Virus record (IMG/VR): IMGVR_UViG_2778261067_000008
Span: 1 to 42,756 of that record
Origin: a virus
Taxonomy: Duplodnaviria; Heunggongvirae; Uroviricota; Caudoviricetes
Length of the DNA: 42,756 bases
Reading direction: 5' to 3' (one strand)
Below, in pieces: positions 36,001 to 42,000 of the stretch; the first letter of the stretch is position 1; each line of letters begins with the position of its first letter. The position numbers were made by a program.

Positions 36001-39000
36001 ATGTATTCAGGCCGGTGGCACATACGGTGGATTTTCATATCCGCGTGACGCCGGACACACCAGAAATACGGGCTGCCATTACCGCGGAGTTGCGTTCGTT
36101 CCTGCTGCGTGATGGTTATCCGCAGGGAGAACTGAAGGTGTCACGTATCAGTGAAGCGATTTCCGGTGCGAACGGGGAATACAGCCATCAGTTGCTTGCA
36201 CCGGCGGACAATATCTCCATTGCAAAAAATGAACTGGCGGTACTGGGGACGATTTCATGGACGTGACAAACGATGATTACATCCGTCTGTTGTCGGCACT
36301 GTTGCCACCCGGTCCGGCGTGGTCAGCCAGAGATCCGGCGATTGCCGGTGCGGCACCGTCATTAACTCGCGTTCATCAGCGTGCGGATGCCCTGATGCGG
36401 GAGCTGGATCCGCGCACCACCACCGAACTGATAAATCGCTGGGAGCGTCTGTGCGGCCTGCCGGATGAATGTATTCCCGCAGGGACACAGACCCTTCGCC
36501 AGCGTCAGCAACGGCTGGATGCGAAGGTTAACCTGGCGGGCGGCATCAACGAGAATTTTTATCTTGCACAGCTTGCTGCCCTGGGCAGACCAGACGCCAC
36601 CATCACGCGATACGACAAAAGCACGTTCACCTGCTCATCGGCCTGTACTGACGCGGTGAATGCGCCGGAATGGCGGTATTACTGGCAGGTCAACATGCCA
36701 GCCGCCACAAACACCACCTGGATGACATGTGGCGATCCCTGTGATTCCGCGCTGCGTATCTGGGGCGACACCGTTGTCGAATGTGTGCTTAACAAACTCT
36801 GCCCGTCGCATACCTACGTAATTTTTAAATATCCGGAGTAATCCATGCATCGTATAGACACGAAAACCGCGCAGAAGGATAAGTTCGGCGCGGGTAAGAA
36901 CGGTTTTACCCGTGGTAACCCCCAGACTGGCACACCTGCCACCGATCTGGATGATGACTACTTTGATATGTTGCAGGAAGAACTCTGCAGCGTGGTGGAG
37001 GCATCCGGTGCCAGCCTGGAGAAGGGGCGAAACGACCAGTTGCTTACCGCGCTTCGTGCTCTGCTGTTAAGCCGCAAGAATCCGTTTGGTGATATCAAAT
37101 CGGATGGCACGGTGAAAACGGCTCTCGAAAACCTTGGTTTGGGAGAAGGCTCTGCATTACCTGTTGGTGTCCCTGTTCCGTGGCCTTCAGCCACTCCGCC
37201 AACAGGCTGGCTAAAATGCAATGGTGCGGCTTTTTCTGCTGAAGAATACCCGGAACTGGCAAAGGCTTACCCGACAAATAAATTACCTGATTTACGTGGT
37301 GAGTTTATTCGTGGCTGGGATGACGGAAGAGGAATTGATACTAACCGTAGCTTGCTTTCATCACAGGGCGATGCCATTCGAAATATAATTGGTGCATTAG
37401 TAGATGTCAGGTTTAATACCTATCCTTCTGATTCTGGCGTTTTTACAACCAGCGTCATCGGAGATGCTTCATCTGATTCAATTAAAGGTGGTTATGCAAA
37501 GCGAGTAACATTTGATGCTTCCAGAGTTGTTCCAACTGCAAACGAAAACCGTCCTCGAAACATTGCCTTTAATTATATCGTGAGGGCTGCATAATGGATT
37601 ACGCTGTATTAAATAACGAATTTATCGCCACCCAAGCAGGAAATATTACGGTTTATAACTATGATGGTGAAACACGGGAATATATTTTTACATCAACTGA
37701 ATATCTTGCTGTGGGTGTCGGCATTCCGGCATGTTCCTGTTTAGATGCTCCCGGCTCATACAAAACTGGTTATGCAATCTGCCGTTCTGCAGATTTTAAC
37801 TCATGGGAATATGTGCCAGACCATCGTGGTGAAATCGTCTTTAGCACAGAAACAGGAGAATCAAAAGAAATCAAAGCTCCGGGTGATTACCCTGAAAATA
37901 CAACCACTATCGCCCCTTTATCTCCATACGATAAATGGGATGGTGAGAAATGGGTGACCGATACTGAGGCACAGCATAGCGCCGCAGTAGACGCGGCAGA
38001 AGCACAGCGCCAGTCACTGATTGATGCTGCAATGGCTTCCATCAGTCTGATTCAGCTGAAATTACAGGCCGGACGGAAACTGACGCAGGCAGAAACAACC
38101 CAGCTTAACGCTGTGCTGGATTACATTGACGCGGTGACGGCAACAGATACGAGCACCGCGCCGGATGTCATCTGGCCTGAACTGCCGGAGGCGTAGGCCA
38201 TTCAATATCTGGAGCACTGGAGGGATCAACCAGTTCCAGTGCGTCCAGATAATCAAGCCATAAATTATATTGCTCCAGCTCGTTACCTTTCAGACGACCA
38301 ATAGCAGCTTTGCCAGGCCACTGATGGGTATTGATGTAGGTATTGGCTTCTGAAACCAAAGATATTTTTTTCATTTCAGCCATCAACACCTCATCCTCTT
38401 TTGAAGGCGGTGGGGAATTAATCCATATTGGCCGTCCTGAACTGTCAGCGCCAATTTCTTTCCCTTCTGGATGCAGCCCAAGAAATTGCTCATATGTTTC
38501 TCGGGTAATTTCAATAACATCATCTGGAAGCGTTCCCGCATCCTCATATTCTGGAAACAATTCTTGTAGATAAAAACTTTTACTTCCGGGTGAAAAGAAT
38601 ACTGAGTTCATTATTACCGTCCAATGATTAACGCTGAGACGCTGGTATCTGAAGGAAATGCTGCATTCAGTGGTTTGTCGACTTTGAATACAATCGTATT
38701 ATTCCCCCGGACAGCGGCAAAAGAACAAACCGCCGTCGCGTATGAACCTGTAATATTACTGGATACACCACCATAGGCTGTTGTTGATACCAGAGGGATA
38801 ACGCCCAGCACCTTATTAGGAAATACAAAGGGCAATGTGGCTGTGGCAATATAAGACTTATTAGAACCTGTGATGGCATAAGCATTATCAGTCATTCCAT
38901 TCATCGCCACTGGGCCGCTTATACTTACAGTAACCATCTGAATGATTAGCCCGTCAGGTTGACGAATCACAAAATTTCCATTGCCACCAGTAACCGTCCA

Positions 39001-42000
39001 GAAAGACATATCAGGGATTTGGTTTTCCCCGTTGCCCACATTCCGTTTTGCCGCTTCTCCCAAACCAACCTTTCAAATATTTTTCTGAATCAGGTGATAT
39101 TTCGCCTCTTCTCCTGTTTTTACAACAGGAGAAGCACTCATGATTTACGGGTATGTTCGTGTATCAACAAATCATCAGGATACAGAGTTGCAACGTCTTG
39201 CACTTGAGTCAGCTGGCTGTGAGCGAATTTATGAAGAATATGCCAGTGGCAGAACAGCTAATCGCCCTGTGTTAAAGGAATTAATTTCGGTGATGAAAAG
39301 TGGAGATGAGTTGATTGTCTGGAAGCTAGATCGGATAGGGAGAAATGTGCTACATGCGCTATTGATGTTTCAAAATCTGCACGAAAAAGGCGTTAATTTT
39401 CGGAGTATTACAGATGGTGTAGACCTGAAAACAGCAAGTGGTCGCTATAATTTCCGTAATATTCTTTCTGCTGCGCAGTATGAATCTGATTTGAATAGCG
39501 AGCGAACTTTAGCTGGTTTGGCTATTGCCAGATCCAAAGGCCGGATTGGTGGGCGTAGACCGAAGTTTAGCGACGAGCAGTGGCAACAGATGGGAGCGCT
39601 CATAGCGGCAGGGAAATCACGGCGTTATGTTGCACGTATCTATAACGTTGGGCTATCAACCCTATATAAACGATTTCCTGTTACTGGCATTCAAACGAAA
39701 TAATTTAAAAGCAATTTAAAGAGTTATTTGTCTAATGTTGGAAGCCGCAGCCACGTCGTATGCAAGAACGTGCTGCGGCTGGCTGGCGAACTTTCGATAG
39801 TGCGAGTATTGAATGATTTCCAGCCGTTACCGATTTTACGTGTTAATTAGTGAACAAACCACTCGTCAGCAGATTCCCAGGTATCTTTCAGAGTCTCCTG
39901 AACAAAAGTTTTTGCAGAATCCTTATCTGCGGTGCGTGTAACAGAAAGGCCATCGTTGCTGGTGGCTTTTACGATCACCTCTACATCGTCATAACGTTTA
40001 CTGATGCGTCGGGTTAATTCTTCCTTTAACGCATCCACAGCACCGGTTGGCATTTTAGTCATTTTTTCTTTGGCTATGCAGATTTCAATACGCATAAAAG
40101 TCCCTCTATACTGTGTTTGTATACAGTGTTATTTTTAACTGTATGGATAAACAGTGTCAAGAGGTCTTATTTCTGCTCCTTTGGAGCTCTTCAAAACGAT
40201 TATGTAAAGATTTCGGATACAGTTCGGTATATACCTGCCATAGCACGTTTAATGAACGATGCCCTGTGACCTGGGCGACTTCCTCAATACTAAAACCAGC
40301 CTCAAATAAGCGACTTGCCCCTTCTCTACGCAAATCATGGTATCGCAGATCCTTAATACCTAATTTGCTTCTTACCCTCTGAAATCCCGCAGTAACAGAA
40401 GTGCTGTTATATGGAAAAATGAATTCCGATTTTTTGGGCTGTCGTTGGACGATATCCCAGGCTTCCCCAAGCAAGGCTACTTTCATGTGGTTGCCTTCCT
40501 TTTTGCGTGGATCTTTCCTGTCTCTTACGAGTATAGATTTTTGTTCCTGGTCGAGATCTTCCCATCGTAACCGGCATACTTCTCCGATCCGCATACAGGA
40601 CCACACAGAAAATTTGAGGATATCAACGAACGGAATTTTTGAGCATTTATGAGTAGATCGTTGTTGAAGGCCTTCAATGAGCATGTCCAGTTCATCAGAT
40701 GCTGGTCTACGATTACGACGGTTTGATTTACCAATCAAACCAAGTTTAAGTAGATATGGGCGAGCGCTTTTCGCCGGGTTTGATGTGTAATTAATTCCGT
40801 ATACAGGTTTGGCCGCATCCAGAACACTGCCAAGATAACTAACATCGTGGCTGACTGTTGCTGGACCTGCACCAGCGTTGTTTCTTAGCCTGCAATGTTC
40901 AATTACGTCATTTTCTGTCAGTTCAGATAGTTTGATCGCGGAGATGTCACTATCCATAAGCAGTTCCAGCACATATCTTTTAGTACGGCCTGCTTTACCT
41001 CCGGCATTTGGGTCATTTAAATATTTGTGTAGTAAGTCACGGACTGTAAGTCCGTCAACTGCATTTGATGATGGAATGCCATATAGATCTAATTCCATCA
41101 CTTTCTGTGTTCCCCATGTTTTGGCATGAGCATGTTTAGGGAATGTTTTGCTTTCCCTGTAAGTGATAACACCTTTTTCTTTGATAATCACATTACAGCG
41201 ATAGCGTGGTGTGCCATCGGATTTTAGTCGTTTCTCTATGTTATAGTACGCCATTACACGACCTCGTTATTTCGGGTTCCCATAAAACGTGGGAACCTGT
41301 GCGGGAACCTAACGCGAGAAAAATAGCCTGAAATGTTCAAAAATGCACGATAATCATGAAACACAAAAAATTAATCAAACCAGCGTGATGCCTGAAAAAA
41401 CTGGTGTTTGCTGGAATTCTCGGTTTAGCATTGCTCCTATGCTCGACTGGACGGACAGGCACTGCCGTTATTTCCTGCGTCTGCTTTCCCGCAATACGTT
41501 GCTGTATACAGAAATGGTGACCACAGGGGCGATTATTCACGGTAAAGGTGATTACCTGGCGTACAGTGAAGAAGAACATCCGGTAGCGTTGCAACTGGGC
41601 GGTAGCGATCCGGCGGCGCTGGCGCAGTGTGCGAAGCTGGCAGAAACGCGCGGATATGATGAGATCAACCTGAATGTCGGCTGCCCGTCTGACCGGGTAC
41701 AGAACGGCATGTTTGGTGCGTGCCTGATGGGCAATGCGCAGCTGGTTGCCGACTGCGTGAAAGCGATGCGCGATGTCGTATCGATTCCGGTGACGGTGAA
41801 AACGCGTATTGGCATCGATGACCAGGACAGCTATGAATTTCTCTGCGATTTCATCAACACCGTTTCCGGCAAAGGCGAGTGTGAGATGTTCATCATCCAC
41901 GCACGTAAAGCCTGGCTTTCTGGGTTAAGCCCGAAAGAAAACCGTGAAATCCCGCCGCTCGATTATCCGCGTGTGTATCAACTGAAGCGCGACTTTCCGC

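Follow-up and report, generated by a model that had tools for sequence, protein, structure and literature searches.

The switching of phage tail fibres by inversion of a DNA segment has been a textbook case since the G segment of Mu, the C segment of P1 and the P segment of the e14 element. The last of these, with its invertase PinE in E. coli K-12, was reportedly described by Plasterk and van de Putte in 1985. The classic Din invertases (Hin, Gin, Cin and Pin) are interchangeable. The P segment of e14 flips in growing cultures (PMC4272514). PinE inverts it, and so does PinQ, despite an identity to PinE of just 38% (PMC12529663). Systematic catalogues of programmed fibre-gene inversions are available (PMC9881135, PMC4272514).

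Here we describe a locus of this type in a stretch of 42,756 nucleotides (hereafter, the window) that carries an apparently intact prophage of approximately 40 kb, integrated in the dusA gene of E. coli and endowed with a Mu-like contractile tail. Its tail, head and lysis modules are complete and similar to those of SKA5, a 37.6-kb phage of the dusA type, to the deposited sequence of which the window is 94-99% identical over 25.6 kb. The location in dusA, already proposed in an earlier note on this DNA, is confirmed by the integrase that abuts the gene and by a displaced 5' fragment of dusA near the opposite end of the window (Table 1); the homology to SKA5 extends to position 41446, inside dusA. 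This agrees with the layout of dusA-integrating prophages, in which a tyrosine integrase adjoins the 5' end of dusA, the phage provides a new 5' end for the gene and the displaced fragment sits at the other junction. Of 5426 complete E. coli genomes, 634 carry the right end of the prophage.

One of the closest described relatives of the locus is the P segment of e14, with which it shares the order of genes (ymfQ, constant part of the fibre gene, tip, tfa, convergent tfa', silent tip and invertase, corresponding to ymfQ-stf-tfa-tfa'-stf'-pin), the constant part of the fibre gene (96.6% DNA identity), a left recombination site identical to the e14 pix site (L001 3779-3804), the inner half of the right site and a 29-bp overlap between the convergent tfa genes. 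The StfE/TfaE cartridges are homologous as well, with a 95% match between the expressed C-terminus and stfE and 89% DNA identity between the chaperone gene and tfaE, but their orientation is opposite to that in K-12. The second cartridge, which encodes a gp53-like tip and a chaperone of 147 aa, has no DNA match to StfP/TfaP of K-12; the right site departs from that of e14 in its outer half; the silent frame lacks the external start codon; the identity of the invertase to PinE is no more than 54%; and the element is a full-length dusA prophage, in contrast to the defective icd element e14. With the G segment of Mu (Gin) and the C segment of P1 (Cin), the locus has in common the constant N-terminal part of the fibre outside the segment, the alternative C-termini (S/S') each with its own convergent assembly gene (U/U'), the 26-bp sites, the adjacent serine invertase and a neighbouring Mu-type baseplate module (gp44-gp48). 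However, the segment is shorter (1.9 kb compared to 3 kb in Mu and 4.2 kb in P1), as is the fibre (249 aa compared to 504 aa of Mu S), and the invertase is only 50% identical to Gin and 53% identical to Cin.

Anatomy of the invertible segment

The features of the locus and of the prophage ends are collected in Table 1.

Table 1 Features of the fibre locus and of the dusA prophage, in window coordinates
Feature	Position	Strand	Evidence and remarks
Displaced dusA 5' fragment	1364-1470		82% identical to 41340-41446
Fibre gene, currently expressed	36845-37594	+	ORF, 249 aa
Constant N-terminal fibre part	36845-37133	+	ORF and conservation; ~97 codons to crossover core
Left recombination site, hix/pix type	37122-37147		CTCTCGAAAACC-TT-GGTTTGGGAGAA; core TT 37134-37135; within fibre reading frame
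Expressed variable fibre C-terminus, StfE-like, phage tail collar domain	37136-37594	+	Pfam Collar PF07484, E 1.4e-15
Tail fibre assembly chaperone, TfaE-like	37594-38196	+	200 aa; Pfam Caudo_TAP, E 5e-33
Second tail fibre assembly chaperone	38168-38611	-	147 aa; Pfam Caudo_TAP, E 3.6e-27; silent in present orientation
Silent alternative fibre C-terminus	38614-39066	-	Start-less; in frame with constant part once inverted
Right recombination site	39055-39080		TTCTCCCAAACC-AA-CCTTTCAAATAT; core AA 39067-39068; degenerate outer half-site
Invertase leader, two conserved hairpins	39093-39135	+	Folding -17.6 kcal/mol, z -2.4
Serine DNA invertase, PinL type	39140-39703	+	187 aa; Pfam Resolvase and HTH_7
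Integrase, tyrosine type	40157-41254	-	Abuts dusA
dusA	41343-42380		Adjoins integrase

The two 26-bp hix/gix-like sites in inverted orientation that the earlier note had delineated were recovered, each consisting, as in the Din family, of two 12-bp half-sites and a 2-bp core that is the same in both once they are oriented alike. The inner half and core (14 nt, TTCTCCCAAACCAA) are identical in the two sites, and the inverted repeats have 18 of 20 nucleotides in common. Exact copies of TTCTCCCAAACCAA occur twice in the 42.7-kb window, one on each strand, with all other matches at 3 mismatches, and the full 26-mer had no match across 100 shuffles. The same search of the window, which yielded only two sites at fewer than 3 mismatches, revealed no extra crossover sites for multiple inversions; for comparison, multiple-inversion systems are represented by p15B and by the three-repeat systems (PMC4272514). 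The site centres are 1933 bp apart, matching the distance of about 1.9 kb estimated previously, and the start of the segment at 37122 also holds, but the end had been placed at 39134, whereas the segment stops with the right site at 39080. The interval up to 39134 also covers the invertase leader.

The 16-nt repeat reported as the inversion site of e14 (PMC12529663) is contained in the left site. The right site is also present upstream of the invertase genes of phi80 (pinL), SKA5 and RM9088, and is the point at which the homology to Cn5, SKA5 and RM9088 switches. On the other side, e14, fS25a, IHE3034, SKA5, RM9088 and Cn5 share a colinear constant part of the fibre gene at 96-100% identity, with the homology stopping at 37148.

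Both sets of tip genes attributed to the segment by the earlier note stand: the expressed C-terminus and its assembly gene match Collar and Caudo_TAP, respectively, and the alternative C-terminus on the opposite strand is accompanied by a Caudo_TAP gene of its own. The start codon (ATG) of the TfaE-like chaperone overlaps the stop codon of the fibre gene. The two C-termini are unrelated in sequence (E 0.66), and the two chaperones are alike only in their C-terminal 80 aa (34% identity). The alternative C-terminus produced a weak hit to Pfam Gp53-like_C (24.6 bits, below the cutoff of 24.9), and NCBIfam yielded no specific family for the fibre, the tips or the chaperones. In-silico inversion joins the alternative C-terminus to the 97-aa constant N-terminus in an uninterrupted fusion ORF of 247 aa, as expected from the claim that the two are in frame through the crossover site. 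In the present orientation, the alternative C-terminus has no start of its own and is preceded by an in-frame TAA located just upstream, in the outer half of the right site; for these two reasons, we reject expression of the silent tip alone, as claimed for StfE2 of e14. A scan of positions 36000-40200 for promoters and terminators detected 7 promoter-like sites compared to 6.9 expected from shuffled sequences; none of these could be assigned to the invertase, and none was supported for the silent tip.

In the mechanism that we propose, invertase dimers would bind the two 26-bp sites and cut the identical TT/AA cores with a 2-bp stagger, after which rotation of the subunits by 180 degrees would invert the 1.93-kb segment between them. 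Since crossover at the left site would take place within the fibre gene, its promoter, start codon and first ~97 codons would remain unchanged, and each inversion would replace the other ~150 codons along with the chaperone gene downstream. State A, found in the window, would combine the collar-domain, StfE-like tip with the 200-aa TfaE-like chaperone, and state B the unrelated gp53-like tip with the 147-aa chaperone. The two tips probably recognise different receptors and, given the exchange of tip and chaperone, lysogen populations would release virions of two adsorption specificities; by analogy with the known systems, inversion would thus be expected to alter the host range.

Inversion among related prophages

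The segment occurs in both orientations among related prophages. The left flank of E. coli fS25a is colinear with the window and 100% identical as far as 37148, whereas the region 37129-39068 is inverted; E. coli IHE3034 follows this pattern as well, so that the whole segment is inverted in both. In SKA5, the flanks are colinear and 97-99% identical, and one of the two cartridges, StfE/TfaE, is inverted with breaks at 37134-37148 and 39054; the second cartridge differs from that in the window. Cn5 is colinear across the entire segment. Thus, between prophages with 97-100% identical flanks, the inversion breakpoints fall inside the two sites. Among complete E. coli genomes, the predicted flipped fusion gene is contiguous in 39 and the current version in 11, and the flipped right junction together with this invertase allele is present, at ~94-98.5% identity, in about 16 (H106-H121). 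None of the complete E. coli genomes in the collection has the exact combination of cartridges and invertase, the best match to the right junction being 87%.

Each structural element listed in the earlier note holds. These observations, together with the anatomy of the segment and the e14-like gene order, bear out the previous assignment to the G-segment type, and we consider it highly probable that the locus functions as a tail-fibre switch with two states, of the Mu G/P1 C/e14 P kind. The main alternative, that the G/P anatomy persists in a fossil that no longer inverts here, with a divergent invertase that is inactive or not expressed and with orientation differences that reflect old events or module exchange, appears improbable. 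Natural locked copies of the switch do exist because the invertase adjoining the segment in IHE3034 and its relatives is a truncated pseudogene; pinL of phi80, which adjoins a segment relic, is likewise a pseudogene; the cartridges are strongly mosaic among related prophages; and the ribosome-binding site of the invertase is held in an 11-bp stem. Against this view, the invertase ORF in the window is full length, has all catalytic residues and matches a cluster of 401 member sequences at 99% identity, the cores and inner halves of the two sites are identical, and no interruption occurs in the silent ORF or its chaperone. Moreover, the breakpoints are located exactly in the sites in prophages with nearly identical flanks, and other Pin enzymes of E. 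coli are able to flip e14-type sites in trans (PMC12529663). Taken together, these findings favour a switch of which this copy probably still flips.

Much less likely is a benefit to the host as the main selected function, whereby an inverted fibre chimera produced in the lysogen would block the adsorption of other phages, a recombinase-activated defence. There is a precedent in e14, which has the same inner repeats and in which inversion of the P segment, reported with PinQ, yields StfE2, a protein that blocks T2 adsorption (PMC12529663). However, StfE2 starts at a codon outside the segment, next to pinE, whereas the equivalent frame in the window is start-less and closed by the TAA that the right site carries in its outer half, and therefore no second chimera is possible. 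Furthermore, the element is a full-length prophage with tail, head and lysis modules like those of SKA5 rather than a cryptic remnant, and expression of the fibre gene would be late and not in the lysogen. Finally, it is very improbable that the orientation differences arose when the short inverted repeats underwent RecA-dependent homologous recombination because, notwithstanding the 18 shared nucleotides, such recombination is inefficient at 14-20 nt, the repeats show the hix architecture of two half-sites and a 2-bp core, the left one being the pix site of e14, and a dedicated serine invertase adjoins the segment.

A sister clade of serine invertases

The invertase of the locus aligns over its full length to the Gin structures 3uj3 and 4m6f (E 8.5e-57) and retains Ser9 (in GYVRVST), Arg7, the DRxGR motif and the GRIGGRRPK arm; the recognition-helix region, GLSTLYKRFP, nearly matches that of PinE, GVSTLYKRFP. 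It is 99.5% identical to the enzyme of SKA5 and ~79% (80% in local alignment) to PinL of phi80, and belongs to the same clade as these and the invertases of mEp237 and HK225 (~79% identity). By contrast, its identity to Gin, Cin and PinE is only 49.7-54.3%, below the range of about 75-82% within which these three enzymes are related to each other and which marks close kinship in the classic Din family. The clade is separate, encompasses at least 115 cluster representatives and forms a branch, as yet unstudied, that is sister to the classic invertases. The adjacent Pin/Gin-like invertase listed in the earlier note is thus present, with the qualification that it is not a close relative of Pin and Gin.

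The invertase gene is preceded by a leader with two hairpins that are kept in seven homologues spanning genera, with one compensatory pair. In the predicted fold, the second hairpin (39106-39132), annotated as IR3 in phi80, sequesters the ribosome-binding site AGGAG in a perfect 11-bp stem. The leader hairpin and the right site are identical in phi80, the difference being that pinL of that phage is a pseudogene next to a relic fragment.

The canonical cis enhancer of these systems is a ~65-bp element with two Fis sites in the 5' part of the invertase gene. Activation through Fis and the enhancer requires basic residues at Hin positions 47, 48 and 51 as well as Gln151, Arg154 and Leu155 (PMC3798978). 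The invertase in the window has K, E and S at the first three positions and Q, A and L at the other three, so that three of the six are lost, whereas all six are invariant or always basic in 104 canonical representatives. Among 180 alignment columns of the 115 clade representatives, these positions rank high in variability (154, 2nd; 51, 5th; 48, 16th; 155, 20th; 151, 21st). At the position of the regulatory Phe105 of Hin, the window invertase and the clade have Asn. In Hin, the substitution F105N results in Fis-independent cleavage and inversion. The switch residues of helix E are fixed in the clade as Y-N-F-R-x-I-x-x-A-x-x-Y, compared to the canonical F-F-F-H-x-M-x-x-L-x-x-M.

A scan for Fis sites in the first 300 nt of five invertase genes, which employed a simple consensus score and is crude and of low specificity, did not detect a site pair where Gin and PinE have one, nor any convincing enhancer. 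It returned many weak matches in every gene, and the only pair found in all five, at a spacing of 46-50 nt, corresponds to a conserved coding stretch. Analysis of synonymous-codon conservation along the invertase gene, with few sequences and low power, showed no peak either in the clade or in the Gin/Cin/PinE positive control.

Judging from the protein sequences, the loss of the Fis/enhancer residues and the Asn at the Phe105 position suggest a different mode of control. If the canonical mechanism is needed, the invertase might be poorly active given that three of the six activation residues are missing; otherwise, the clade enzymes may be enhancer-independent or controlled in another way, perhaps by tight translational repression through the conserved hairpin that sequesters the ribosome-binding site. 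In Cn5, the same invertible segment lies beside a canonical pinE, and therefore the two types of invertase have been interchanged on the same sites. We tentatively propose, as one possibility and not the most probable one, that this is a widespread enterobacterial clade that recognises the same hix/pix sites without control by Hin-type Fis/enhancer contacts.

As a tail-fibre switch, the locus adds little to what is known: complete E. coli genomes that contain the switch number in the hundreds, and the finding is accordingly correct but ordinary. Automated annotation nevertheless labels the silent tip as a 'hypothetical protein' or a partial pseudogene and the flipped fusion gene as 'hypothetical', so that host-range prediction for the common dusA prophages misses half of their repertoire. 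The invertase clade, for its part, is a natural test of how dispensable Fis/enhancer control is for serine invertases, a question of relevance to their application in genome engineering.

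Anatomy of the segment and its prophage

Within positions 35000-41500, the arms of the longest inverted repeat lie at 37129-37148 and 39054-39073 (18 of 20 positions complementary), and the two inverted 26-bp hix/gix-like sites reported in the earlier note were recovered there, each consisting of a 12-bp half-site, a 2-bp core and a second 12-bp half-site. The core dinucleotides match once both sites are oriented alike, and the 14 nt of inner half and core are identical in the two. This 14-nt sequence has two exact copies in the 42.7-kb window, one on either strand, with all further matches in the window at 3 mismatches; the left 26-mer yielded no full match across 100 shuffles, and a search of the window for a third crossover site found none. 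Because the left site spans codons 93-101 of the fibre gene, about 97 codons are constant.

Coordinates of the switch locus and neighboring genes
Feature	Position	Strand	Description
Baseplate_J	35208-36266		Mu-type baseplate gene, upstream of fibre
Gp48/YmfQ	36257-36841		Mu-type baseplate gene, upstream of fibre
Fibre gene	36845-37594		249 aa
Left site	37122-37147		26 bp, CTCTCGAAAACC-TT-GGTTTGGGAGAA
First chaperone gene	37594-38196	+	Caudo_TAP, 200 aa; ATG overlaps fibre stop codon
Second chaperone gene	38168-38611	opposite	Caudo_TAP, 147 aa; convergent with first
Alternative C-terminus	38614-39066	as second chaperone	150-codon frame, upstream of second chaperone gene, entering right site
Right site	39055-39080		26 bp, TTCTCCCAAACC-AA-CCTTTCAAATAT
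Invertase	39140-39703		187 aa; Resolvase and HTH_7 domains
Tyrosine integrase	40157-41254	minus	abuts dusA
dusA	41343-42380		adjoined by the integrase

The expressed fibre C-terminus contains a phage tail collar domain (E 1.4e-15) and is followed by its assembly gene. The alternative C-terminus, likewise accompanied by an assembly gene of its own, shows no start codon on translation and is closed by a TAA within the outer half of the right site. In-silico inversion of 37136-39066 fuses it in frame with the constant part into a 247-aa protein, bearing out the proposed continuity through the crossover site. The two C-termini are unrelated in sequence comparison (E 0.66), and the identity between the chaperones (34%) is confined to their C-terminal 80 residues; the two tips would presumably differ in receptor specificity. 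Where their 3' ends meet, the chaperone genes share 29 bp (38168-38196), as they also do in e14 (tfaP/tfaE), fS25a, SKA5 and RM9088. In the middle of the StfE-like expressed tip, 37342-37543 has no DNA match to e14 stfE, with both flanks matching at 89-95%, and the receptor-binding part of this tip is mosaic inside the cartridge.

Integration at dusA was likewise upheld. A displaced dusA 5' fragment (1364-1470) has an 82% identical direct copy at the opposite junction (41340-41446), which came with the phage and is joined to dusA. These junctions give the prophage a length of about 40 kb. The related Escherichia phage SKA5 (OR670062), a deposited 37.6-kb genome whose early genes are lambdoid and whose tail is Mu-like, is 94-99% identical to the window across 25.6 kb. 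Out of 5426 complete E. coli genomes, 634 have the invertase-DinI-integrase-dusA right end. A DinI-like gene (39847-40095, minus strand) separates invertase from integrase here as in SKA5, and in phi80 the DinI gene dinL lies close to pinL; this gene is conserved cargo at the invertase/integrase end of the element.

Comparative evidence for natural inversion

Genome comparison provides strong evidence for natural inversion at both sites. In E. coli fS25a, the left flank is colinear and 100% identical as far as 37148, and 37129-39068 is reversed; E. coli IHE3034 has the same arrangement. E. coli Cn5 is colinear with the window over the entire 36000-39237. SKA5 has colinear flanks and a reversed StfE/TfaE cartridge, with breaks at 37134-37148 and 39054, and in K-12 e14 the homologous cartridge occupies the silent position. 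In 39 complete genomes the predicted flipped fusion is a single uninterrupted gene, which RefSeq labels 'hypothetical protein', and 11 have the present version; the flipped right junction accompanies the window invertase allele in approximately 16 genomes (H106-H121; about 94-98.5% identity). For the homologous e14 segment, both orientations have been detected in single cultures by sequencing and PCR (PMC4272514), and inversion is catalyzed by PinE and also by the distant PinQ (PMC12529663).

In IHE3034, the invertase gene beside the flipped segment is cut down to a 123-bp remnant (L003 8285-8407), so that copy is a naturally locked one, barring inversion in trans by a different Pin. APEC O1 and numerous ST95-like genomes likewise match the flipped fusion gene at 97.8%.

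By analogy, the switch most likely works like the Mu G and e14 P segments. Invertase dimers bound at both sites would synapse, and the enzyme would cut the cores, rotate and religate, such that an unchanging promoter and N-terminus would be read into either tip-plus-chaperone cassette. The window copy is probably still capable of flipping.

A distinct clade of invertases

As the earlier note had it, a Pin/Gin-like invertase is adjacent: the protein aligns over its full length to 3uj3 and 4m6f, both crystal structures of Gin (E 8.5e-57), retains the nucleophile Ser9, the DRxGR motif and the GRIGGRRPK arm, and is nearly identical to PinE in the recognition-helix region. However, its identity to Gin, Cin and PinE is just 49.7-54.3%, against 75-82% among those three, and its identity to PinQ and PinR is 37%. 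It belongs to a large clade in Enterobacterales, with members in E. coli, Salmonella, Citrobacter, Klebsiella, Enterobacter, Serratia, Kluyvera, Morganella and Erwinia, that includes the phi80 pinL pseudogene.

We compared aligned clade representatives (n=115, from P0001-P0120) with canonical invertases (n=104, from P0121-P0240). The helix-E positions 104-107, 109, 112 and 115 (Hin numbering), which govern the Hin dimer-to-tetramer switch, are invariant within each set but differ between the sets: FFFHxMxxLxxM in canonical enzymes, YNFRxIxxAxxY in the clade. In Hin, the F105N substitution frees both cleavage and inversion from the need for Fis and triggers SOS (PMC4513852); enhancer contacts are Arg48 and Lys51, and Fis contacts Gln151, Arg154 and Leu155 (PMC3798978). 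These five positions are invariant or always basic among canonical representatives, whereas in the clade they rank 16, 5, 21, 2 and 20 in variability among 180 columns; in the window protein they are Glu, Ser, Gln, Ala and Leu. As far as sequence can tell, the helix-E signature and the variable contact positions suggest that dependence on an enhancer may differ from the canonical kind or be missing. A crude, nonspecific scan of the invertase gene for the Fis consensus showed no site pair where Gin and PinE have theirs, and a profile of synonymous-site conservation had no peak in the clade or in the canonical control set.

In a comparison of Cn5 (L031 3001-6490) with window 36200-39703, Cn5 carries the invertible segment in the same orientation, 96-98% identical, with a canonical pinE in place of the window's PinL-type gene; two invertase types have therefore been exchanged on the same sites. 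The homology switch falls on the right site, so the crossover sites are also module boundaries for invertase-gene exchange. In phi80 (L008 4900-5549), the right site is identical, and the leader hairpin and the opening codons of the window's gp53-like silent tip accompany a pinL interrupted by an internal stop; in this siphovirus lacking an invertible segment, the locus is a relic of such a switch.

The invertase leader (39093-39135) contains two hairpins that are conserved in Kluyvera, Trabulsiella, Pseudocitrobacter, Shimwellia and Apirhabdus; phi80 has them too, its second one bearing the annotation IR3. In the second hairpin (39106-39132; arms CTTCTCCTGTT/AACAGGAGAAG), the stem hides the AGGAG ribosome-binding site, which lies 8 nt ahead of the ATG. 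Variation across the homologues includes one compensatory pair (C-G to U-A) and one change to a G-U wobble. This structure may throttle invertase translation.

Observation and interpretation in the earlier note were correct, and this type of switch is very well known already and common in E. coli. The uncharacterized invertase clade is a modest addition, and there is an annotation gap, with silent tips and flipped fusions labeled as hypothetical or partial.
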